From: an uncultured Acidobacteriota bacterium
GTDB lineage: Bacteria; Acidobacteriota; Vicinamibacteria; Vicinamibacterales; UBA2999
DNA: 64,000 nt
NCBI GenBank assembly: GCA_963841905.1
Contig: CAWJEM010000024.1
Coordinates: 384,017 to 448,016 of the forward strand
Direction: 5' to 3'
The notes below the pieces were generated by a model. That model worked only from the letters and a program-made list of their open reading frames with translations. It had not been told where the DNA came from and made no database searches. Of the stretch, positions 7,130-46,194 are shown in pieces. Each line of letters begins with the position of its first letter. Position 1 is the first letter of the stretch. Made by a program: the position numbers and the translations under genes.

Positions 7130-7746
7130 CTGAGGTACCTGACGCCTAACTTGGTGAGGGCCTCCTCTGGGCAGCCAGTCCAGCGTGCGACCGATCGATT
7201 GCCCATGTACTGCAGGTCGTCGATTCCCATTCGCGTCGTCCAGAAGCCCGCTGCGGTCAGATCACGGAAGCTACTGAAGAACGTCATGCCGTGTCGCAGA
7301 GGATGGGGTGTATCACCCGGCTTCACTACGGTGCGCGATGGCCAGGCAATATCGTCAAGCACCGCAGTCTGCTCGTTTGCCGCACAATCCACGAACGTCT
7401 TGTCGAACCGCTTCTGGCACTCGACATCCAGCCAGGCAAGCCCACCGCGCATCCCGACTTGCCGCGTCGGCTGATCGATCATCATGAAGTCCATGAACTC
7501 GGGCACACCGGCATCGGTGGCGCTGCCCGAGCGGTCGTCCGTGGGGATGATCAGATCGACGAGCACGCTCACCGATCGCCACTCGTGGGGCGTAAAGAAT
7601 TTCGGCTGAAAGGGGGTCCCGGCGGCGGCCGCCGCCTGCGCGACCTGCACCAGGTGGTGCGCATGGGCGGCTTCCGCCTCGGTCCAGGCGAATCCAGCGG
7701 CAAGCGGCGCGGACGCAAGCAATCGAAGCACGTCGCGACGTTCCAT
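6913..7746 (-). CDS. Gluconate 2-dehydrogenase subunit 3 family protein (Tat-exported small subunit of the GMC enzyme)
   Basis: ATG 7744-7746 shares a base with the upstream stop (TGATG). Tat leader MERRDVLRLLASAPLAAGFAW, then ...LIIPTDDRSGSATDAGVPEFMDF.... As written it runs 217 nt into the next gene. Removing one G at 7134-7135 gives ...LGVRYSDV* with a stop at 7122-7124 (208 aa). Confidence 0.8.
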   Translation of the reverse strand: MERRDVLRLLASAPLAAGFAWTEAEAAHAHHLVQVAQAAAAAGTPFQPKFFTPHEWRSVSVLVDLIIPTDDRSGSATDAGVPEFMDFMMIDQPTRQVGMRGGLAWLDVECQKRFDKTFVDCAANEQTAVLDDIAWPSRTVVKPGDTPHPLRHGMTFFSSFRDLTAAGFWTTRMGIDDLQYMGNRSVARWTGCPEEALTKLGVRYLRCLMAGRRARASPSFFPPSWFCFSRSLFSAGCPRTSACCHTFPTSSCSRVFSESEWAASSRPHAVACSPGFR

Positions 7747-9468
7747 CAGACACTCCCTACTTTTCGCTGATCGACGATGAACTCGCTGGTGCGCATGGCG
7801 AGCGCCAGAATCGTCCACGTTGGATTCTTGTCCGCCTGCGAGACGAACGGCCCGCCATCGGCAACGAACAGGTTTCTCACATCGTGCGCCTGGCAGTTTC
7901 GATTGAGTACCGAGCTTCGCGGATGGCTCCCCATGCGTGTCACGCCCAGCTCGTGGATGATTCGCCCACCGGGCTCGATGCCATAGCCATCTTCCGCGCT
8001 CGGCATGGGTGACAGCGGCGTCCCGCCCATCTCGTGGATGATGGCGCGGAACGTCTCCTGCATGTGCTTGACCTGTTTCAACTCGTAGTCCGACCACTTG
8101 AAGTGGAATCGCAGGACCGGAATGCCCCACTTGTCCACGACGGTCGGGTCGACCTCGCAATAGCTGTTCTCGTTCGGCACCATTTCCCCGCGACCGGAAA
8201 AGCCAACGGTCGCGCCATAGAAACGACGATAGTCGTCCTTGAGCTGCTTGCCGTAGCCGCCACCTGCAATGGGCCGTCCCGAGCTGTCCGTCCCGTTGTA
8301 TTGGTGAATGCCGCCAAGCGTGCCAAAGCCGGGCAATCGACGACCGCCGCCGATCTCGATGTGATAACCGCGCGGGAAGTCGAGCGTTCGATTGTCGAGC
8401 CACCAGGGCATGTAGAGATGGGCTCCGCTGGCCCCGTCCTCGTTGTGCGGAACGCTGTTCATCATCCGCGGGATGAAGCCGCGCACGCTCGTTCCGGTGG
8501 AATCGGTGATGTAACGGCCGACGCCGCCGCTGGAGTTGGCGAGCCCGTCCGGAAACTTCGACGACTTCGAGTTCAGGAGTAGTCGCGCCGTTTCGCAGGC
8601 GCTGGCGGCGAGCACGACAATCCGCGCGCGCACGTGATTCTCGCGACCCGTGGCCTTGTCGATGAAGGTCACACCGTTTGCGAGGCCGCTCTCATCCACC
8701 GTGACCTCTCGGGCCATCGCGTTCACGGTCAAGGTCAGACGTTTGGTTGCCAGCGCCGGTGGCAACAGCACCGACGGCGACGAAAAGTTCGCGTGCACGG
8801 AGCATCCGCGTCCGCACTGCCCGCAGTAGTGACAGGCCGGTCGGCCGTTGAGCGGCTGCGTCAGGATCGAGAGTCGCGACGCAACGCATGGGATCTTCAG
8901 CTTCTGTGAGGCTTCTTTGATCAGCAGCTCGTAGCAGCGCGGTCGTGGCGGCGGTTGAAAGAGGCCGTCGGGCTCGTTCGGCAGGCCCTCCTTCGACCCG
9001 AAGATGCCGACGAGCGTGTCGACGCGGTCGTAGTACCGGCTTCAAATCGTCGTACGTGATGGGCCAGTCGTCGCCGAGGCCATCAAGGCTACGGCGCCGA
9101 AAGTCGTCCGGGCCGAAGCGCAGGGAGATGCGGCCCCAGTGATTGGTGCGTCCGCCGAGCATGCGCGTGCGGAACCAATCGAAGCGGTCGCCCGCCGCCG
9201 TGGTGTAGGGCTCGCCGTCGAGCGTCCACCCGCCCAGGCCGGCGTCGAACTCGCCGAACTGCCGCTCAGGAATCGGCGCGCCACGTCTGGGCGAGTCGTA
9301 GGGCCACGCGAACATTCGCGAGTCGCGGCGCGTGTCCCACATGATGCCTGCCTCGAGCATCACGACGTCGGCGCCAGCCTCGGTGAGCACCTTGGCGGCC
9401 ATGCCACCGCCAGCGCCGGAACCGACGATGCAGACGTCGTAGATGTGGGAATTACGAATGATCTGCAT
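7746..9468 (-). pseudogene. GMC family oxidoreductase with the frame broken once (frameshift or base-call error)
   Basis: Pieces are 8692..9468 (YDVCIVGSGAGGGMAAKVL FAD fold) and 7746..8798. They join as ...DWPITYDDLKP|YYDRVDTLVGIFGSKEGLPNEPDG... if one G at about 9036 (AAG CCG G TAC TAC) is removed. Confidence 0.85.
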
Positions 9469-17260: not shown

Positions 17261-17367
17261 CCAACGCCCGAATCCGGACACCTGCGGCCGTACTCCACAA
17301 CGGAACGACGCGATGAGCGCGTATTTTCCGAGTGTGCTCTGGCACGACCCTCGCTAAGTCACTGGCC

Positions 17368-19818
17368 ATGCTCAGCGATCTCCGCCTCGGCCTCCGCCAC
17401 TTCCTTCGTCGTCCTGGCATCGCCCTGGCGGCCGTTCTGTCGCTGGCGCTCGGGATTGGGGCGAACAGCGCCATCTTCAGCGTGCTGCACAGCGTCGTCC
17501 TCAACCCGCTGCCTTATCGAAGTCCAGAACGGCTGGTCATCCTGTGGGAGACCTCGTCGGATAACCCTGAGCGATGGGTGGCGCCCGCGAACTTCGTGGA
17601 CTGGCGGCGAGAGTCGCGGTCATTCGAATCGCTCGCGGCATTCGACGAGTTCTCGCCGACGCTCGCCGGTCGCGCGGAGCCCGAGCGGCTCCGAGCCGTC
17701 GGAGCGTCGGGGACGTTCTTCACGACGCTTGGGGTGACGGCATCGCTCGGCCGCACGCTGCTTCCATCGGACGATGAACCCGATGCGAGTGGCGCGGCGG
17801 TCCTGAGCCACGGACTCTGGACTCGCCTGTTCGGCGCCGCACCGGATGCGATTGGGCAGACGCTGCGACTCGACGGCCGCAGCTACACGATCGTCGGCGT
17901 CATGGGCACACGTTTCGAGTCCCCCCTGGCCGCGGGCGTCGATGTGTGGCTGAGCGGCGATCGGGGAATCCCGCGCACGTTTCCCTTCGGCGGAGACCTC
18001 ACCAATGTGCGCGATTCGCACATCATCTACGTCGTTGGCCGCCTGGCGCCGGCCGCCAGCCGCGAGGTTGCGCAGCAAGAGCTGAGCGCGATGATGGAGG
18101 CGCTGGCACGGCGCTACCCCGACACCAACGCCGGTCTTGGCGTCAACGTCCAGCCGTTGCACCAGGCCGTCGTCGGCGACCTCAGCGGAGTCCTGGGACT
18201 CATGCAGTTGGCGGTGGCGATGATGCTGCTCATCGCCTGTGCCAACGTCGCGCACCTGCTGCTCGGTCAAGCCGCGGGCCGGCAAGGCGAGATGATGGCG
18301 CGAGTCGCACTGGGCGCAGCGCGCGGGCGCCTCGTGCGTCAACTGCTGGCCGAAACAATGGTCATTGCCATTCCTGGCGGCGTGCTGGGGCTCTTGCTCG
18401 CCGCCTGGGGACTCGATGCGCTCGTCGCACTTGCCCCTCGCGGCCTTCCGCGCCTGGAAGAGATCGGCCTCCACCCAATCGTGCTGCTCTTCACCACCGG
18501 TGTGACTTTCCTGACCGCGGCCGTGTTCGGGCTGGGGCCGGCCTTTCAGTTGGCCCGGCAAAGCGCGCTCACGCCGAGCCACGCGTCATTCCGACTGACC
18601 GGCGGCCGGCATGTCAGGCGTTGGCATCACGCGATTGTCGTCACCGAGCTTGCGATGGCTCAGGTTCTACTCATCGGCGCCGGGCTACTGCTCGCGAGCT
18701 TTGTCGCCAGTCAGCGCGTGCCTCTCGGGTTCGAGACCGACGGGCGCGTCGCCGCAGATCTCAACCTCGCCCCCGACAAGTACCTGCGTCCCGTGTCGGC
18801 GGAAGCGTTCACCATCGATCCCGCTCTCAAGATCGGCTTCGTCCAGAGGGTCCTCGAGCAGTTGGAGTCGGCAAAGGGCATGCGAGCCGCGGCGGCCTCT
18901 TTTACATCCCCGCTCAGCGGGGCACCCAATCGTGGGATCCGCATCGAGGGGCGCCCGTCAGCAGCCGGACGCAACGAGGATGCGGCTGACTTTCAAGTCA
19001 TCACGCCGGATTTCTTCCGGTCCGTCGGTGCAACCCTGATTCGGGGCCGCACGATTGCCGACACCGACCGTGCGAACACGCCAGCAGTGGTGGTCGTCAA
19101 TCGGGCGTTTGCCGATCGTTTCTTCCCTGGCGTCGATCCCATCGGCCAGCGAATCCTGTTTGGCGAGCGTGCGGCTCACGAGGTGGTCGGCGTCGTCGAC
19201 AACATGCGCTACAGGTTCGTCGAATCACCGGCCGACCCGACCTTCTACATTCCGATCACACAGAACGCCGAACGTTGGCCGTTCCTCTCGTTTACGGTGT
19301 GGAGCGACGAAGAGGCGACGGTGACGGCAGACCGCTTGCGCAGTGCGATCCGCACGGCCGACCCTGGACAGGCGATTACGAGAATGCGGAGCTTCGACGA
19401 GATTCTGAGCACAGCGCTCGCCACGCGGCGCTTCAACACGCTGCTCGTGCTCGTGTTTGCTGGAGCGGCGCTGGTCCTGGCTGCCGTGGGCACCTACGGC
19501 GTGATGGCTTACGCCGTTTCGACGCGGACCCGTGAGCTCGGCGTGCGTGCCGCACTCGGTGCGAGCCCTCGGAGCCTGCTCCATCTGGTGGTTGGGCAAG
19601 GCGCAATGCTCACGGCAGTCGCGGTCGCGCTCGGCATCGGCGCCGGGCTCTTTCTCACGCAGCTGATGGCTGCGATGCTCTATGAGGTCACGCCCCGCGA
19701 TCCGCGGACGTTCGTCGGTGTCGCCGTGCTCCTCAGCCTCGTGGCGCTCGTGGCGACGTGGGTGCCGGCGCGGCGTGCCGTCAAGGTGAGTCCGATTCGG
19801 GCGTTGCGCGAGGAATAG
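17368..19818 (+). CDS. ADOP-type ABC transporter permease (MacB-like periplasmic core plus duplicated FtsX modules)
   Basis: N-terminus MLSDLRLGLRHFLRRPGIALAAVLSLALGIGANSAIFS and tail ...VKVSPIRALREE*. There are two 4-TM FtsX blocks and no adjacent ATPase gene. Confidence 0.85.
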   Translation: MLSDLRLGLRHFLRRPGIALAAVLSLALGIGANSAIFSVLHSVVLNPLPYRSPERLVILWETSSDNPERWVAPANFVDWRRESRSFESLAAFDEFSPTLAGRAEPERLRAVGASGTFFTTLGVTASLGRTLLPSDDEPDASGAAVLSHGLWTRLFGAAPDAIGQTLRLDGRSYTIVGVMGTRFESPLAAGVDVWLSGDRGIPRTFPFGGDLTNVRDSHIIYVVGRLAPAASREVAQQELSAMMEALARRYPDTNAGLGVNVQPLHQAVVGDLSGVLGLMQLAVAMMLLIACANVAHLLLGQAAGRQGEMMARVALGAARGRLVRQLLAETMVIAIPGGVLGLLLAAWGLDALVALAPRGLPRLEEIGLHPIVLLFTTGVTFLTAAVFGLGPAFQLARQSALTPSHASFRLTGGRHVRRWHHAIVVTELAMAQVLLIGAGLLLASFVASQRVPLGFETDGRVAADLNLAPDKYLRPVSAEAFTIDPALKIGFVQRVLEQLESAKGMRAAAASFTSPLSGAPNRGIRIEGRPSAAGRNEDAADFQVITPDFFRSVGATLIRGRTIADTDRANTPAVVVVNRAFADRFFPGVDPIGQRILFGERAAHEVVGVVDNMRYRFVESPADPTFYIPITQNAERWPFLSFTVWSDEEATVTADRLRSAIRTADPGQAITRMRSFDEILSTALATRRFNTLLVLVFAGAALVLAAVGTYGVMAYAVSTRTRELGVRAALGASPRSLLHLVVGQGAMLTAVAVALGIGAGLFLTQLMAAMLYEVTPRDPRTFVGVAVLLSLVALVATWVPARRAVKVSPIRALREE

Positions 19819-20851: not shown

Positions 20852-21922
20852 TTACTTCACCCGGGCCAGTTCCTCGTCGATCACGGACTGGAACTGCTCG
20901 AAGGGCTGTGCCCCAACTACCGGGCGCCCATTGACGTACATCGTCGGTGTCGAGTTGACACCGATCTGTTCCCCGAGCTTGAAGTCGGTCGAGATCGAGG
21001 CGGCGTACTTGTCGCTATCGAGGCAGGTGTCAAAGCGTCCCGTATCGATCTTGAGCGCCGCCGCGTGCTGCTTCAGGTTGGCAACCTCCATCCGCGCCTG
21101 ATTCGCGAAGATCAAGTCGTGCATCTGCCAGTACCTGTCCTGCTCTCCCGCGCAGTGTGCCGCCTGGTGGGCCTTGGGCGCCTGTTTGTGGTTCTGGAGC
21201 GGGAAGTCCTTGAATACGATGCGGACTTTGTCGCCGTAGGTGGCGCGAATCTTCGTGAGAGTCGGACCGACTCTCGCGCAGTACGGTCACTGATAATCCG
21301 AAAACTCGACGATCGTCACCGGGGCGGTTGCGGGACCGACCGATGGATCATCGTCCGAGATTTCGACGGCAATGCGGGGCGGCTCGAGCAAGATTCGCGT
21401 CGCGTTGGCTTTCTTCTTCAGATCATCCACGAGAATTGCGCGAGCCTGCTGCTGGCTATTGCCGGTCAGAAACGACCGAATCTGGTCACTGAGCTGCTCC
21501 AACGAACGCCCTTGAGCACGGTCTTTGTTGTCCTCGTAGAACTGACGCACGTCCGCTTCGGTGACGGGCTTTAGACGTTTCGCCGTCTCGTCTTCGGTGA
21601 ACTTCTGGACAGGGACGCCGGCGGTCTTCGCCGCCTGCTCGATCAGCAGGTCTCCCATCATCTGGTCGAGAACGTTGCGTCGATTCTGATAGAGGAGCTG
21701 CGTAATCCGGGAGCGCTCGGCCGGATCCATCGACTGCCAGCGGTCGTCGAGCTCCTTCATCGTGATCTTGCGGCCGCCGATTTCGGCGACGACGGCATCC
21801 GCCGTTTGTGGCGTCGAGGGCTGGGACTGGGTGGCAGCCTGCTGAGCCGGAGCGGTTTGGGCGTTGGAACAGGCAACCGTGATTGCGATCACGATGCCAC
21901 CCAGGGCAATCCTCATCCCCAC
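20852..21922 (-). CDS. DsbA-family thiol:disulfide oxidoreductase with an in-frame TGA at the CxxC position (candidate Sec)
   Basis: ORF 21287..21922 and the downstream frame ending at 20852 form one continuous frame (1071 nt). It reads ...[43 protein letters not shown]...GVNSTPTMYVNG.... The N-terminus has a lipoprotein-like signal. Confidence 0.8.
21257..21275 (-). promoter_or_regulatory. Candidate bacterial SECIS hairpin
   Basis: The mRNA reads UGA CCG UAC UGC GCG AGA GUC GGU CCG ACU CUC. GAGAGUC pairs with GACUCUC, leaving an apical loop GGUCC. This places G23 and U24, counted from the U of UGA, in the loop. Confidence 0.6.
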
Positions 21923-21944: not shown

Positions 21945-22160
21945 TTAACGATCGCTGGGCTCATCGGGGCCTGAATCGTTGGAAAACATCAGCTTTTCGT
22001 AGCCGATGCAGCGCAGCACCGGTAGTGGCGGATACTTACGAAAGCGCTCGTCGGTAAAGGACCGCGTGCAGAGATGAAATGTCGAGCGGGCCGCCTGCAC
22101 GATCCGACAATGTTTGCAACTCGCGCAGAGTCCAACCGTCGGATCGTCAGAAGCGGGCAT
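21945..22160 (-). CDS. Small conserved Cys-rich hypothetical protein
   Basis: MPASDDPTVGLCASCKHCRIVQAARSTFHLCTRSFTDERFRKYPPLPVLRCIGYE.... It has five Cys and ends 22 nt upstream of the DsbA-like gene on the same strand. Confidence 0.55.
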   Translation of the reverse strand: MPASDDPTVGLCASCKHCRIVQAARSTFHLCTRSFTDERFRKYPPLPVLRCIGYEKLMFSNDSGPDEPSDR

Positions 22161-22285
22161 CGGTGATGAGTTTCCCTCGGTACTGCGCCCAACCGTCACT
22201 TGAAATTGCTGGCGATTGGGACGGGAAGCCTTGAGTAGACTGTCATTGAGGATGGACGGTTGTCGCGGAATGGGGGACTGATAGA

Positions 22286-23224
22286 ATGAACGTCATGTCC
22301 AGCCAATCGATGTTGGGCCTTCTCGGGGGCCTCACCCTGCTGGCGATCGCGAACGTTTCGGCACAGGCTCCGCAGGAACCCCAGACACCGGTCTTCCGCG
22401 GCAACGCCCGGACCGAGGTCCCCGTCTACGCGACGGTCCTGGACAGTTCGGGACGTTTGGTGCCGGATCTCGATCGTGCCGACTTCACGGTGCTGGACGA
22501 CGGCAAGCCGGTTGAGCTGACGCAGTTTTCGAACGCCACGCAGCCGTTCACTGCGGTCGTGATGATGGACACGAGCGCGAGCATGACCGCGAACCTGGAG
22601 CTGCTCAATCACGCCGCCGAGCAGTTTCTTCTTCGGTTGTTGCCCGTCGATCGCGCGCAGGTCGGGGCGTTCAACGACAAGATTCAGCTCAGTGGGAGGT
22701 TCACCAACAATCGCGACGAGCTCGTGGCCGCGCTCGACGATTTGCAAATCGGCAACCCGACGCGACTGAACGACGCGATCGCAACCAGCCTTGACGCGCT
22801 CGGGGGTATCGAGGGACGACGCGTCGTGCTGGTGTTCACGGATGGCGAAGACACCGCGAGCAAGCTCGGGTTCCGTACGGTCCTTGAGCAGGCACGAAAC
22901 GAAGAAGTGATGGTGTACTCGATTGGCCTGGAGTCCGAGTACTTCAACGGTCAGCGCATCACGCGCTCGCGCCCGTCACGGGACCTGCGAAAGATTTCCG
23001 ACGAAACCGGCGGCGGGTACTTCGAGTTGAAGAAGAACGACCAGCTCGCACCGACGTTCACTCGCGTGGCGCAGGAACTCCGGAGCCAGTACCTCCTCGG
23101 CTTCGCCCCTGCAAACCTGGACGGGAAGGTCCACAAACTCGACGTCCGCGCGCGCACCGGCATGACCGTACGCGCGAGAAAAAGCTACATCGCTACACCC
23201 GACCGCAAGCTGACGAGCAACTGA
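22286..23224 (+). CDS. VWA domain protein (VWFA-related acidobacterial domain type)
   Basis: 312 aa with a signal peptide, then ...PVFRGNARTEVPVYATVLDSSGRLVPDLDRADFTVLDDGKPVELTQFS...VVMMDTSASM (MIDAS). Confidence 0.8.
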   Translation: MNVMSSQSMLGLLGGLTLLAIANVSAQAPQEPQTPVFRGNARTEVPVYATVLDSSGRLVPDLDRADFTVLDDGKPVELTQFSNATQPFTAVVMMDTSASMTANLELLNHAAEQFLLRLLPVDRAQVGAFNDKIQLSGRFTNNRDELVAALDDLQIGNPTRLNDAIATSLDALGGIEGRRVVLVFTDGEDTASKLGFRTVLEQARNEEVMVYSIGLESEYFNGQRITRSRPSRDLRKISDETGGGYFELKKNDQLAPTFTRVAQELRSQYLLGFAPANLDGKVHKLDVRARTGMTVRARKSYIATPDRKLTSN

Positions 23225-24529: not shown

Positions 24530-25360
24530 CTAGGCTTTTTGTGTGACATGCCAGAAATCAGCGAGCAAGTTGACACTGACTTCGCGCCGATAGTCCGCCG
24601 TCGATCGCAAGTCGTCGATCGGCGCGATCTCGCCGCGCATCACCGCTTGCGCTTGTTTGAGGGAGCTCCCGGCCGTCAATACCCGCTCGGTGCGGCGAAG
24701 CCGAAGGACCGTGGGCGCGACGCTTCCCAACGCCACCCGCACCTCAGGGCCGCGCACGGCGGCGCACATGACCTTTGAAATCGCCTGCGCCCGTCGAGTG
24801 CCGACCTTCCGCCAGTACTGGCGGCCCTCGATCCGAGGGACTTCAATCGCCACGATGATCTCGTCCGGACGCCGCACGCTCGTTCGATAGCCCGTGTAGA
24901 ACGTGTTGAAAGGCACGCGGCGCACTCCCTCAGCGCTGCTCAGCATAATCGTCGCATCAGCGACCGCGAGCACCGGCAGTGCATCACCGGCCGGCGACGC
25001 GTTGGCGATGTTACCACCGAGAGTGCCCCGATTCTGAATCTGTCGGCCGCCGATCTCTCGGGACGCCGCGACGAGCATCGGGACACGACGCCGCACGAGC
25101 GGGGATTGAATCAGATCCGTATAAGTCGTCAACGCGCCGATGCGCAGCGTGCCTCGATCGTCGGCAATGCCTCGAAGCTCCTGCAGCGGCCAGAGATCGA
25201 CGAAGCGCTTCTCGGCCAGCGTTCCGAACTGGAGACTGACGTAGACGTCGGTGCACCCCGCCAATGGACTGAGCGGCCCCTCGTCTCGCAGCATTGTCAG
25301 GGCCTCGCGCAGCGTGCGCGGGCGAAGGAGCGACAGGGGTGAGACCGCTGTGCGCATCAT
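24530..25360 (-). CDS. Xanthine dehydrogenase family FAD-binding subunit (CoxM/XdhB-like)
   Basis: 276 aa with ...LLRPRTLREALTML...AGCTDVYV...GGRQIQNRGTLGGNIANASPAGD.... Confidence 0.85.
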   Translation of the reverse strand: MMRTAVSPLSLLRPRTLREALTMLRDEGPLSPLAGCTDVYVSLQFGTLAEKRFVDLWPLQELRGIADDRGTLRIGALTTYTDLIQSPLVRRRVPMLVAASREIGGRQIQNRGTLGGNIANASPAGDALPVLAVADATIMLSSAEGVRRVPFNTFYTGYRTSVRRPDEIIVAIEVPRIEGRQYWRKVGTRRAQAISKVMCAAVRGPEVRVALGSVAPTVLRLRRTERVLTAGSSLKQAQAVMRGEIAPIDDLRSTADYRREVSVNLLADFWHVTQKA

Positions 25361-25850
25361 TTACGTGACCTGACCAGACCCACCAGACCTACCCGCCCGC
25401 GCCCGACCCGCGCGAGCTCCTCTCCGCACAGACCGATAGATCGCTTCATATCCCGTGCAGCGACACAAATTGCCGGCCAGGGCCTCCTGAATCGCCTTCG
25501 TGCTGGCACCCCGTCGAACCGAGAGTGACGCCATGATCATCCCCGGCGTGCAGATGCCGCACTGCGCTCCGCCCTCGACGGCAAACGCCTCTTGAAGCGG
25601 ATGCAGCTTTCCCTTCGGCGCGACACCCTCGATGGTGGACACGATGGCGCCATCCAGATGCGCTGCAGGGATCAGAGCACGAATTGATCGGAAGCCCGTC
25701 GATCAACACCGTACACGCACCGCACTCCCCCTCACCGCAACCTTCCTTGGTGCCGGTGAGACCGCAGTCCTCTCGCAGGACATCGAGCGCTCGCTTCATC
25801 GGGTGCACGTCGAGCTGCCGCACGACGCCGTTGACCTTGCAAGTAATCAC
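25361..25850 (-). pseudogene. (2Fe-2S)-binding small subunit with the frame broken once
   Basis: Pieces are 25446..25850 (CGEGECGACTVLIDGLPINSC) and 25361..25642 (GAQCGICTPGMIMAS, CRCTGY). They join as ...INSC|LIPAAHLDGAIVSTIEGV if the extra T at 25676 is removed. Confidence 0.85.
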
Positions 25851-27970
25851 GCGTGCCTCACCGGTTTGAGTCGTGCCGCCTTCATCAACCGCTCGGGGGT
25901 CGCGGGAATGGCCCGCACGTCGAAGCCGACGTGTCGCAGCGCATTCACGATCGCTGGCGCCGGCCCGTCGATCGGCATCTCGCCAACCCCCTTGGCGCCG
26001 TAGGGCCCGTACTTATAGGGCCGTTCCAGAATCACTGTCTCGAGCGGCGGAGTATCGGGCGGCGTCGGAATGATGTAGTTGGTCAGCGTCGGGTTTGCCA
26101 TCCGCCCGTCGCGCATTACCACCTCTTCGAGAAGCGCGTATCCGATGCCCTGCGCGGTGCCACCTTCGACCTGGCCGGCCGCCATGATGGGATGAATCGC
26201 CTTGCCGATTTCGACCACGGCCGTGACCTTGGTCGGGTTGACCTCCCAGGTGGCCTGGTCGACTTCGAGTTCCACGACGTTGCAGCCCCAGCCATAGCTT
26301 CCGTACGCATCTCCCAGGTAACGGTCATCGTCCCATTGCAGCCCGGGTGGCCGCTCGTACTCGGCGGTCACGACGAATGATCCGTGCTTGCGGAAGTACG
26401 CGGCCGGCGAGTGGCCATCGAGCCGATCACGCATCTCTCGGGCGGCACGTTCGAGCAGGCGGCCGACGATCATACAGGTGCGAGAGGCGACGGTGGGGCC
26501 GCTATCCGGCACGCGATCCGTGTCCGCTTCTGAGATTTCGACGGCATCGTAGGGCAGCCGCAATGTGTCCGCGACGATCTGCGCGTGCATCGTTCGCGTC
26601 CCCTGTCCGATTTCGGTGGACGCGACCAGAATGCGGACTCCTCGTGGCGTGAGCTCGAGCGATGCCTTCGACGCCAGCTTCGTCTCGCCCGCGCCGGTAA
26701 ACCCGGAGCCGTGAAAGAAAAGCGAGAGGCCAATGCCGCGATGAGTCCCACGCCATTTGCGGCGTTTGGCGGCAAAGCCAGTACGCCGGACGGCCTCGCG
26801 CAGCACCGGCAGCGCGCTCGTGTCTTCGGCCAGCACTTGACCCGTGGCGGTGGTATCCCCTGGTTTCATCGCGTTCTTCGCGCGCAGCGTCACGGGATCC
26901 ATGCCCAGCGCATCGGCAATTCGATCCATGTGCACTTCGACGGCAAACTGCGTCTGTGGTGCCCCGAACCCTCTGAACGCACCGTTCGGCGGCGTGTTCG
27001 TGCGCATAGCCTTGCCACGAAGCCGCACGTTCGGACACGCATACGGGCCGGTCGCGTGAAGCACGCCACGCGACAGCACCACCGGGCTGAGCGTGCAGTA
27101 AGCGCCCGCATCGAGCATGACATCTATTTCCATGGCGACCAGGCGACCCTGCCGCGTCACCCCGGTTCGATGGCGCACGATCGAGGGGTGGCGTTTGGTG
27201 GTCGCCAGCATGTCCTCGACGCGGTCGTAAATCATCTTTACGGGTCGGCGCGCCTTCCGCGCCAGGAGCGCCGCGTGACACGCGATGTGTGACGGATATT
27301 CCTCCTTGCCGCCGAATCCGCCGCCCGTCTCCGTTTGTACGACTCTGACTCGGTGGGCCGGCAGACCCAGCAGCACGGTCAGTGACCGGTGCACGTAGTA
27401 CGGGCACTGCAGCGATCCGTACACGGTCATGCCATCGACTTGGGGCACGGCAATCACGCCGTTGGTCTCGATGTAGAGCTGCTCCTGATGCCCCGTGCGG
27501 TACTCGCCTTCGACCACGACGTCGGCAGCCGCAAATCCATCGGTGAGATTGCCCTTGTCGATCGCTATCGACTTGAAACTTCGGTTCGATCGCTCGGGAT
27601 CGAAGAGCGCTGGTTGCGGGGTGTAGTCGATCGGCACGCTCGCTGCCAGCAGGCGCTCGCGATCTTCATGGGCGAGCAACAGAATCGGCTCGGCGACGTG
27701 ATAGATCTCGTGCTCAGCCAGGCACGGTTGATCGTCGTCGATGAGCGCAACGATGTTGCGTCCGGGGACGTCGCGATAATCGACAACGGTAAAGGTCGCG
27801 GGATCGAAGTCGAGGCGAATACGGTCCAGCCGCCCCCGAGGAATCGTGGACCGGACGGTCCGGCCATAGAGCATTCCTGGGAAGGCAAGGTCGTCGATAT
27901 ATTTCGCGGCGCCAGTGACTTTGGCATCCGAGTCCTTCCGCCGAACGTTTCTACCAACGGCGCGTCGCAC
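25847..27970 (-). CDS. Xanthine dehydrogenase/aldehyde oxidase family molybdopterin-binding large subunit
   Basis: 707 aa and intact. Motifs include ...GGGFGGKE... and ...AFRGFGAPQ.... The stop overlaps the small-subunit start (ATGA). Confidence 0.9.
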   Translation of the reverse strand: MRRAVGRNVRRKDSDAKVTGAAKYIDDLAFPGMLYGRTVRSTIPRGRLDRIRLDFDPATFTVVDYRDVPGRNIVALIDDDQPCLAEHEIYHVAEPILLLAHEDRERLLAASVPIDYTPQPALFDPERSNRSFKSIAIDKGNLTDGFAAADVVVEGEYRTGHQEQLYIETNGVIAVPQVDGMTVYGSLQCPYYVHRSLTVLLGLPAHRVRVVQTETGGGFGGKEEYPSHIACHAALLARKARRPVKMIYDRVEDMLATTKRHPSIVRHRTGVTRQGRLVAMEIDVMLDAGAYCTLSPVVLSRGVLHATGPYACPNVRLRGKAMRTNTPPNGAFRGFGAPQTQFAVEVHMDRIADALGMDPVTLRAKNAMKPGDTTATGQVLAEDTSALPVLREAVRRTGFAAKRRKWRGTHRGIGLSLFFHGSGFTGAGETKLASKASLELTPRGVRILVASTEIGQGTRTMHAQIVADTLRLPYDAVEISEADTDRVPDSGPTVASRTCMIVGRLLERAAREMRDRLDGHSPAAYFRKHGSFVVTAEYERPPGLQWDDDRYLGDAYGSYGWGCNVVELEVDQATWEVNPTKVTAVVEIGKAIHPIMAAGQVEGGTAQGIGYALLEEVVMRDGRMANPTLTNYIIPTPPDTPPLETVILERPYKYGPYGAKGVGEMPIDGPAPAIVNALRHVGFDVRAIPATPERLMKAARLKPVRHA

Positions 27971-43552: not shown

Positions 43553-46194
43553 CTAGTTTCCGCGCCTCCAGTTCAGAATCAGTGTAATCGGGGAGGATGC
43601 CAGATCATCCGCCGCGACATTGATCAGGAAACGACCGTCGGCCGCGACATCGTATTGGGGGTTGAAAGGATTGACCGCCGCGCTTTCCACAAAGCGCGGG
43701 GCGAAGAGCGCGACTGGCGGACTGGTCTGAAACACTGATCCGGAAGCGCTGACCTGAACGGCCATCAGCTTGCCGTCTGCGGCAACGTAGAACAGCTCGC
43801 GGCCATCGCGACTCCAGCGGCCATGCACGCCCCCGCCCGTCGACACGTGCCACACCCGTTCACCGGCAGGAAACCCCCGCACCGCGATCTCGAAAGGACC
43901 CGATTCATTCGTTTGGTACAAGAACCATCGACCATCGGGAGACAAACGTGCACTGCTTTCATCAGCGGACGTGCCAACGAGCTTACGCGTTTCCGAGGCT
44001 GGACCGAGCCGATGCACCCACACGTCGCGGCTGGCGTTTTGCGGCGTGCTGTAAAAGAGCAGCCAACGACCGTCGCGCGAAATGTCGCTCGGCGAAATCT
44101 GCGAAACGCCGAGGGCCGCCGCGCCGAGGACCAAGCTTTCATGTCCCTCCGCGTCGAGGCGCGCCATGTAGATGTCGAATGTGCTGCCGCGACTGGATCG
44201 GAAGGCGATTGCATTTTCGTCGGGCATCCACACTGGGAACACTTCCTGCGCCGAATTCATCGTCAGTCGCGTGACGGCGCCGCCGGCACGATTGACGATC
44301 CAAATATCAATGTTGCCCCCGGGGCGGCGTGTGAGGGCGACCCGTTGGCCGCTCGGCGCGAGGACCGGGCCCGAGGGAAATTCGGCGTCAGAAGCCGCGA
44401 AAGCCCCTTGATCCTCACCGTTGCGGCCGAACCAGCGCAGTTGCGCGCCGGTGACGCGGCCGGGCCGATACGCCACTGGTCCCGCTCGTGAAATCGAGAA
44501 CGCGCTCCGGCCCACCGTCGAAGGTACCGGACTCGCCACTGCCTCCGGGACTCCGGTGACCATATTCCTCGCCTCGTCAAACGGCTGGACATACAACGTT
44601 CCTTCGCGAACATACATGACTTCGTTCGGCTCGCGGAACTCGGCGGTGCCGTCGCTTCGCAACAGGCGTGTGCGATCTGGGCTGTCGATCGCCGCCAGAT
44701 AGACTCCTCGCTTGTCGGGATCGCCGATCTCAAGAACAAAGAGAAACCGCCGTCCGTCAGGGTGCCAGGTGGGTGAGAGGTGAGCGCCTTCACCTGGTGC
44801 GTGCGACGTCACGGTCCGAACGGCTGACCCGGTGGCCGAGACGAGATGGATGGGTCCGGAGGCGTTCTGCGTGAACAAGATGTCGCCGTTGGTGCTCCAC
44901 GCCCCACTTCGGCCAGCCGGCGCGTCGGCGAGCGTGACCGCCGCACCGCCCGCCAGATCGATGCGCTTCAGTTTGCCGTAGGCAAAGAACCCGATGGAGC
45001 GTGCGTCGGGTGACCAGAACGGGTTGACCGCACCTTCCGTGTTCGGCAGTGGCATCGCGGCGGCGTTGTCGAAAGCCCGCAGCCACAACTGCGAGGGACC
45101 CGTCGCTCCACGGGCGGCGAACGTGATTCTCCGGCCGTCGGGAGACAGCGCAAACGAATACGCATCTGCAGCCGCCGGCGTGGCGATATCGAGGCGCAAC
45201 TCGCCGATGCGAGGTGTCGGCGATAGCCAGAGCGCGGCCGCGGCCGACGCGATTGCCACGACGGAGGCACCCGCGGACAGTTTCCAATTGATGCGCCGTC
45301 GACCGGGCTCGACGATGGCTTCACCATCGACGTTGCCGGCGGCCGCTTCTTCGATCTCGATGCGAACGGCGGTCGCCGAGTCGAGTCGCTGCGATCGTTC
45401 GCGTACGAGGCATCGTCGCAGCAGCCTGCGAAGTGACGAAGGCGTGGAAGCGGGCAACAGCGTCCAGTCCGGCGAGGTGTGGAGAACGGCCGCCATCGTT
45501 TCCGTAGCCGTCGCTCCGCCGAACGCTCGATGTCCGCTTAACATCTCGAAGAGGACGCACCCCAAGCTCCAGATATCGCTCCGCCGATCGACACTTAGAC
45601 CCCTCGCCTGCTCGGGAGACATGACGATGCGGTGCCAAACACGACTCCAGGTCCGGTCATCTGCATCGGGATCGTGCCGGAATCGGAACTGCCGTTCGCA
45701 AGGCCTGCCGGTACAACGGTCCGGGCCAGCCCGAAGTCGAGCACCTTGGCGACCCCGTCAGATCGCACCTTGATGTTTGCGGGCTTCAAGTCCCGATGGA
45801 CGATGCCGATCTCGTGCGCAGCTTCAAGCGCCGCCGCGATCTGGCGCCCGATCTCGAGCGCCTGATCAAGCGGCAGGCGACCCTGCCGAATCCGGGCGGC
45901 GAGGTCTGCGCCCTCGACGAACTCCATCACCAATGCGCGGCTTCCATCCTCGCTCAGCGCGACGCCGTAGATCTGCGCGACATGTGGATGGTTGATCGAT
46001 GCCAGCATCATGGCTTCGCGCTCGAACCGCGCGGCGCGCTCGGCATCACGGACAAACTGGTCGGGCAGAACCTTGATGGCGACGACGCGTCGGAGATCCG
46101 GATCGAGGGCCTTGTAGACTTCGCCCATCCCGCCGGCACCGAGCGAGCACTGAATCTCGTATGATCCGACGCGTGCGCCCGGGGCGAGTTTCAT
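43553..46194 (-). pseudogene. Ser/Thr protein kinase fused to a TolB-like beta-propeller, frame broken once
   Basis: Pieces are 45595..46194 ([28 protein letters not shown]) and 43553..45622 (SPEQARG..., repeated SPDG blades). The motif GTAS-YMSPEQ lacks one base at about 45623. Confidence 0.85.

Follow-up and report, generated by a model that had tools for sequence, protein, structure and literature searches.

The 64-kb window analysed here (the whole stretch of 64,000 nucleotides from contig CAWJEM010000024.1 of an uncultured Acidobacteriota bacterium) carries on its minus strand, at positions 20852-21922, a gene coding a DsbA-like protein. The initial annotation had described it as a single frame of 357 codons whose sole internal stop is the TGA at 21287-21289, had placed this stop at the nucleophilic Cys of DsbA/Thioredoxin_4 proteins and had read the gene as a candidate selenoprotein. 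Translation reproduces the frame, homologue alignment confirms the position, and the candidate reading is supported by conservation of the TGA, by a covarying hairpin specific to the selenocysteine (Sec) forms and by selection downstream of the codon. The in-frame UGA is very probably a genuine Sec codon with its own Sec insertion sequence (SECIS). The complete selenoprotein gene (20852..21922), whose extent is backed by Pfam, by synteny and by selection on both halves, codes 356 residues followed by a TAA stop. The start codon is the GTG at 21922; an ATG at 21916 is an alternative start. In the list of open reading frames (ORFs) the caller's ORF has 211 amino acids (21287-21922), and the next start is an ATG 55 codons past the TGA. 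Searches for exact products retrieved no record for the 211- and 209-residue amino-terminal fragments or for the oxidoreductase encoded next to the gene.

The gene product is predicted to be an extracytoplasmic lipoprotein thiol:disulfide oxidoreductase. All its features are encoded on the minus strand. The amino terminus MGMRIALGGIVIAITVA-C resembles a lipoprotein signal, and a signal peptide with the lipobox ...IAITVA-C18 is read off the sequence at 21869..21922. The lipobox fits the PROSITE PS51257 pattern. Its Cys, at which the protein would be lipidated, is invariant across the orthologue alignment (C6 of the Cys orthologue P0001). The SurA_N-like helical amino-terminal domain (21602..21835, residues ~30-107) belongs to a helical region that reaches ~residue 170. 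Its matches to SurA_N_2/3 (PF13623, 27.1 bits; PF13624, 26.5 bits; residues 30-107) are slightly under the gathering scores. The DsbA/Thioredoxin_4 catalytic domain (20873..21352, residues 191-350) was identified in a Pfam search of the protein with Cys substituted for the internal stop. Thioredoxin_4 matches residues 191-350 with E=3.8e-35 and 122 bits (cut-off 23.2), and DSBA matches with E=7.5e-25 and 88.3 bits (cut-off 25.6). The cis-Pro loop of the thioredoxin fold, Thr325-Pro326 (20945..20950), aligns with the TP of ScsC and is invariant among the orthologues (T306-P307 of P0001). A second Cys pair, in the helical insert, is likewise invariant: Cys257 (21152-21154) and Cys300 (21023-21025), which are C238 and C281 of P0001 and probably form a structural disulfide.

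Structure comparison used the AlphaFold model of P0001 (69% identical to the window protein, pLDDT 88.8). The model features long, confident amino-terminal helices followed by the DsbA domain, predicted as a thioredoxin fold with an inserted helical domain in which motif residues 193-196 open helix 194-213. The target-normalised TM score of the DsbA domain is 0.80-0.87 against 3GYK, BdbD and ScsC, and 0.76-0.87 when Wolbachia alpha-DsbA1 is added to the set. The nearest solved relatives by sequence are ScsC and BdbD (E ~1e-16).

According to the homologue alignment the UGA is Sec212 (21287..21289), at the position of the amino-terminal, nucleophilic Cys of CxxC. The redox motif is U212-P-Y-C215 (21278..21289), a UxxC as in DsbA-like selenoproteins (PMC1088965). 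Cys, the first of CP[FY]C, occupies the UGA column in 120/120 of the best full-length homologues, which have at most 69% identity to the window protein and several of which are annotated as Vicinamibacterales. The single-domain orthologues among these best 120 read QCP[FY]C[A/S/G/Q]R[V/I][N/V/T]P[T/A][L/I], with Gly after Arg-Val/Ile in none. The five closest relatives in a scan of GTDB species representatives all have TGA followed by P[YF]CARVGPTL, at amino acid identities of 97% (L121), 95% (L122), 84% (L125), 71% (L123) and 66% (L124). Four of them are Microflora Danica (MFD-labelled) metagenome-assembled genomes (MAGs) of Acidobacteriota, and the remaining TGA MAG bears the contig label k127 and is probably an Illumina assembly. 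TGA is also found in the metagenome contigs L054, L067, L053, L014, L010 and L037. These TGA genomes and contigs were assembled independently and from different samples. In L126-L128 (Vicinamibacterales), which come next in relatedness, the codon is TGC or TGT and the peptide reads ARV[N/T]P[A/T]L. Because its DNA is 96-98% identical to that of L121 with many small indels, the window is an independent assembly of the same species or of a sister species.

The 144 codons past the TGA are open in all six TGA genomes. Between the window and L125 this region has 131/144 identical residues, 48 of them encoded by different synonymous codons, and the differences fall on the first, second and third codon positions in the proportion 12/7/54. 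Comparisons of the window with L123 and with L124 give similar codon-position patterns. Both halves of the gene are under purifying selection in the TGA lineages. Since the downstream codons are open and evolve like coding sequence, the UGA must, on this comparative evidence, be decoded and the downstream half translated.

From the UGA onwards the mRNA reads UGA CCG UAC UGC GCG AGA GUC GGU CCG ACU CUC ACG. The putative SECIS hairpin (21257..21275, minus strand) spans nucleotides (nt) 15-33 counted from the U of UGA and is composed of the 8-bp stem GAGAGUCG/CGACUCUC and of the apical loop G23-U24-C25. ViennaRNA pairs G15-G22 with C26-C33. The helix is the one first described as 7 bp under a GGUCC loop; inclusion of the G22-C26 closing pair makes it 8 bp with a GUC loop. 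The hairpin also encodes (A)RVGPTL. Isolated as 23 nt it folds with -12.1 kcal/mol (z=-2.9). Its stem and loop use codons that are rare in the window, namely AGA (3.2% of Arg), ACU (6.4% of Thr) and GGU (13.8% of Gly). When the same peptide was re-encoded with codons drawn from the window's codon usage, only 0.065% of 20,000 synonymous versions folded as well (P=6.5e-4).

Conservation of the hairpin was assessed on 18 distinct Sec-form sequences of the 'VGPTL' type, in an alignment whose only gaps are end padding in a single shorter sequence. Pairing of the 8-bp helix holds in 97.9% of cells, and no clade member has a bulge. Compensatory double changes, which the initial annotation had suggested seeking, are present in 3/8 stem pairs and are mostly synonymous: A18-U30 becomes G-C through AGA/ACU to AGG/ACC, G15-C33 becomes A-U or C-G, and G17-C31 becomes A-U. 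The covariation score is matched by 0/500 shuffles, and sliding the 3' arm as a control lowers pairing to 21-58% of cells. The segment GUC-GGU-CCG-AC is nucleotide-invariant, third codon positions included. This pattern indicates that the hairpin is a selected RNA element rather than a by-product of the peptide.

The Cys forms provide the comparison. Three of them for which flanks are available (L200, L202, L203) are positional orthologues, because they keep the gene order of the window: VWA protein, small Cys-rich ORF, dsbA and quinone oxidoreductase, with the ADOP-type MacB/FtsX permease in two. Like L126-L128, which are close Cys relatives, these three encode CARV[V/N/T]P[T/A]L, using at the hairpin site the codons CGC/CGG/CGU - GUG/GUC - GUG/GUC/AAC - CCG/CCC - ACG/GCG. 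The z-scores of all these Cys forms range from -1.1 to +1.2 and none has a comparable hairpin, whereas the six Sec genes have z of about -4 at the same site. The possibility raised at the outset, that Cys orthologues would show the stem simply through amino acid constraint, is not borne out. Every Sec form of the orthologue group has Gly after ARV, whereas no Cys form of the group among the best 120 does; the GGU of the loop imposes this residue on the Sec forms. A covariance model of the 27-nt element (R1) was searched over 1.77 Mb of DNA. Scores of at least 37 bits occur exclusively right after the TGA of such genes, including 7 sequences outside model building, and the window is matched once (21253-21279, 44.5 bits).

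A Nannocystaceae multi-domain protein (L157, 501-540, plus strand) has a Cys-form DsbA domain in which 'SKVGPTL' and the core GUCGGUCCGAC persist but the lower stem is disrupted. With R1 this copy scores 19.5 bits, whereas Sec forms exceed 37, and it resembles a fossil SECIS that outlived a conversion of Sec to Cys.

The gene belongs to a wider set of UxxC proteins. Metagenomes scanned with one degenerate DNA pattern, D-[YF]-Q-TGA-P-[YF]-C-A, yielded at least 120 matching loci, and each of the 120 listed is a DsbA-like frame that is open before and after the TGA. The figures that follow apply to the matches listed, which are spread over many subfamilies. At equal GC, the sequence past the codon folds better in 119 Sec forms (mean z -1.47) than in 111 Cys forms (mean z -0.06; Mann-Whitney P=2e-15). 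A perfect hairpin of at least 5 bp is found in 79% of Sec forms versus 24% of Cys forms, and its apical loop contains GU in 85/94 Sec hairpins versus 1/27 Cys hairpins. The apical loops (L001-L120) fall into classes that start at nt 23 (GUC/GGUC), at nt 25-27 (CGUGA-type) and at nt 38 (AGGU/AGUU), which suggests several independent or heavily remodelled SECIS solutions on one CxxC helix. In the nt-38 class an extra GC-rich hairpin often precedes the SECIS. Multi-domain arrangements were also observed. L018 (two matches, minus strand) codes a tandem multi-DsbA protein with two UxxC domains, each having its own SECIS copy, and in L189 (2635, plus strand; Polyangiales) Sec is confined to the first of five DsbA domains.

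In a neighbour-joining tree without support values, used solely as a hint of a Sec/Cys mosaic, Sec forms are scattered over four positions between the Cys forms of the orthologue group. The same SECIS is found in DsbA domains of Myxococcota (L189), in tandem multi-domain proteins (L018) and as the fossil copy in L157. Because the scattered Sec forms have the same SECIS, it can be tentatively proposed, as a scenario that we would not yet favour over its opposite, that Sec with a GGUCGGUCCGACC-type SECIS is ancestral in the SurA_N-DsbA lipoprotein group of Vicinamibacterales-like soil Acidobacteriota and that Cys replaced it repeatedly and independently. If so, with each replacement by Cys the Gly imposed by the SECIS became free to change (to Asn, Val or Thr), and the rare AGA/ACU codons were no longer required. 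The group would then offer a natural series for measuring the contribution of Sec to oxidative protein folding, and selenium-dependent redox chemistry of the envelope would be common, and systematically unannotated, in aerobic soil bacteria.

The following model is proposed for the window gene. The product would be a DsbA-like lipoprotein of the ScsC/BdbD type with Sec as the nucleophilic first residue of its redox motif (U-P-Y-C). The hairpin at nt 15-33, located 11 nt past the UGA, would present G23/U24 in its apical loop to SelB. SelB carrying Sec-tRNA(Sec) would bind this loop and, competing with release factor 2, supply Sec at the UGA in the A site, so that selenium is incorporated at Sec212 and translation proceeds over the remaining 144 codons. 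Being located within the coding sequence, the SECIS dictates codons and one residue of A-R-V-G-P-T-L. The mature protein would alternate between the selenolate/thiol and the selenenylsulfide states and so act on disulfides of envelope proteins, by oxidation, reduction or isomerisation. The SurA_N-like helical domain probably serves in substrate binding or oligomerisation.

Several observations speak against Sec decoding and have to be weighed. Neither the 64-kb window nor any of the fetched flanks contains selA, selB, selD or a tRNA-Sec gene. ARAGORN detects no tRNA-Sec in the 64-kb window or in 40 loci, and tblastn with approximate E. coli queries gives no credible selA or selD match in the window or in the fetched loci (the SelA query has weak segment matches in two archaeal loci and nothing else). 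Rfam has no match in the whole window at gathering thresholds nor in 21150-21400 at E<=10. In contexts of 46-56 nt the z of the hairpin is -1.1 to -1.3, which is unremarkable. The likeness to the SECIS of E. coli fdhF pointed out in the initial annotation holds for the spacing and for GGUC at nt 22-25, but the window hairpin is devoid of the bulged U17 that is required in the fdhF minimal SECIS. Finally, split genes (see below) and 31 gap openings per 3.8 kb relative to L121 suggest that the window is a long-read assembly with indel errors. Note that the E. coli fdhF SECIS has z=-1.33 in the same folding test; since a genuine SECIS gives the same z, single-sequence folding is non-discriminating and its z-score was dropped as a criterion. 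Sec use in Acidobacteria is documented for three families with four selenoproteins (PMC1794560) and for Occallatibacter riparius (PMC12013277). A search of the literature on Vicinamibacter/Vicinamibacterales and selenocysteine found nothing relevant.

Those gap openings and the at least two apparently frameshifted genes of the window could be taken to favour an error of base calling or assembly, or else a nonsense mutation of very recent origin, in which case the true codon would be TGC or TGT and the hairpin coincidental. The presence of other base-level errors, of which the initial annotation had warned, agrees with the likely indels and frameshifts found. However, these errors are indels and not substitutions, and at the position where TGC or TGT had been considered other assemblies have TGA instead: the codon is the same in five other species-level genomes and in metagenome contigs, at 66-97% protein identity. 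The hairpin accompanies the TGA, is absent from Cys orthologues and has codon choices of P=6.5e-4. An error is practically negligible as an explanation. True termination would give a 211-residue protein with the SurA_N part only, the DsbA part decaying or being translated separately. Gene callers do end the ORF at the UGA and no Sec machinery is seen in the window, yet the 144 downstream codons stay open with mostly third-position change between lineages that are ~80% identical in DNA, no start codon occurs before 55 codons past the TGA, and the catalytic motif would be split. We regard termination as extremely unlikely.

UGA-C is a leaky context for termination. This fact and the lack of a demonstrated Sec machinery would fit readthrough of the UGA without Sec, either by near-cognate Trp or Cys insertion aided by the hairpin or with the hairpin as a relic SECIS after loss of the machinery. 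Such readthrough is very improbable in view of the SelB-type GU loop at nt 23-24, common to at least 85 other UxxC DsbA genes. The enzyme would be inactive with Trp in place of its nucleophile, yet purifying selection acts on the domain, and loss of the machinery in five species that all kept the TGA is unlikely. Reassignment of UGA (genetic code 4 or 25) was ruled out, as TGA is the normal stop of 19/47 predicted genes of the window. Decoding as Sec remains the preferred reading of 21287-21289. According to a codon model trained on the window, no other in-frame TGA of the 64 kb has two flanks that both show good coding potential. A crude GC3 screen had given ten other in-frame stops, none of which survived that model, and the window therefore holds no second selenoprotein candidate.

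The gene is flanked by an ADOP-family duplicated permease (17332-19818, plus strand; TIGR03434, 817 bits) and by a VWA protein of acidobacterial type (22286-23224, plus strand; TIGR03436). These marker families support the Acidobacteriota origin of the window. Directly upstream of dsbA lies a small Cys-rich ORF (21945-22199, minus strand, 84 amino acids as listed) with the core TVGLCASCKHCRIV...LPVLRCIGYE and no Pfam or NCBIfam match. It has 65% identity over 48 amino acids to the 64-residue ORF at the same position beside the Cys orthologue of L200, and ORFs of similar size occupy the equivalent position in L201 and L203. Its product may interact with the oxidoreductase, as a partner or as a substrate. 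Subunits of a molybdenum hydroxylase of the xanthine dehydrogenase family are encoded nearby (24530-27970, minus strand). The large subunit scores 392 bits against TIGR03311, 'selenium-dependent xanthine dehydrogenase', whose cut-off is 830; this match is a coincidence of names and not evidence for the selenium cofactor trait. Elsewhere on the minus strand a GMC oxidoreductase is apparently split in two: its FAD-binding amino-terminal part is an ORF at 8692-9468, which overlaps a GMC_oxred_C ORF that lies in a different frame (7746-8798). A Ser/Thr kinase ORF with PD40 repeats (43553-45622) starts at position 164 of the kinase profile and is overlapped by an upstream ORF (45595-46194). The regions 7746-9468 and 43553-46194 likely hold frameshifts or indel errors.

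Gene callers stop at codon 211 and split such genes, and the top matches in protein searches are full-length Cys forms. At least 120 genes were retrieved with one DNA pattern, so the extent to which envelope disulfide chemistry depends on selenium in the abundant soil Acidobacteriota is probably underestimated. Dual coding is cleanly illustrated here: an RNA element fixes rare codons and a Gly, and the Cys orthologues serve as natural controls. The locus is suited to testing the specificity of SelB for SECIS beyond model organisms and the benefit of Sec in a DsbA-type active site. It changes no current concept, the family and the mechanism being both known.

The hairpin has features in common with the E. 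coli fdhF SECIS, whose minimal form spans nt 15-31 with G23 and U24 conserved in the apical loop and for which U17 and G23 are reported as SelB-binding sites (PMC8659212). The fdhF sequence used was checked against 5,419 E. coli genomes, giving a 100% match inside fdhF. Both hairpins begin at nt 15 (11-nt spacer), and in both GGUC occupies nt 22-25 and G23/U24 are apical-loop bases. The window hairpin differs from the fdhF SECIS by its perfect 8-bp stem, its 3-nt loop and the absence of an extended lower helix back to the UGA, and primary sequence homology is limited to GGUC.

Among Cys-type proteins of solved structure, ScsC (Proteus mirabilis 4XVW, Salmonella 4GXZ, Caulobacter 7RGV), BdbD (Bacillus subtilis 3EU3) and Wolbachia alpha-DsbA1 (3F4R) have the same catalytic fold and Thr-Pro cis-Pro loop as the window protein. 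ScsC also aligns with a CP[Y/F]C-type motif and has an amino-terminal helical extension. Unlike the window protein, they all use Cys, their sequence identity to it is just 21-29%, and its amino-terminal domain is much longer (~170 residues) and SurA_N-like. The nearest NCBIfam family, NF041057 (Rcas_1661 family thioredoxin-like (seleno)lipoprotein), is a curated DsbA-like family with Sec and Cys forms that matches the catalytic domain of the window protein with E=2.3e-36. The whole-protein score (125.6 bits) does not reach the curated cut-off (190 bits), only profile positions 83-246 are aligned, and the amino-terminal region differs. The window protein is a relative and not a member of this family.

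DsbA-like UxxC selenoproteins were first reported in 2005 in the Sargasso Sea selenoproteome by Zhang, Fomenko and Gladyshev, with nine sequences and a SECIS figure (PMC1088965), and in 2006 in Deltaproteobacteria and Clostridia. A survey of 2016 counted 45 genes in 41 organisms (PMC5029168), and reviews of 2022 and 2026 list them as 'DsbA-like protein form 1, PF01323, UxxC' (PMC9312934, PMC13188914). The window protein shares with form 1 the DsbA domain, Sec in place of the first Cys of CxxC, widespread Cys homologues and, right downstream, a SECIS stem-loop whose small apical loop contains a G, which is the conserved feature of bacterial SECIS (PMC1088965). It differs from form 1 by the addition of a lipoprotein signal and of the SurA_N-like helical domain, and by its origin in a soil, Vicinamibacterales-like Acidobacteriota. 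The window gene is a new selenoprotein of a known sort that uses a known mechanism, and it possibly represents a new subfamily with a SurA_N-like domain.

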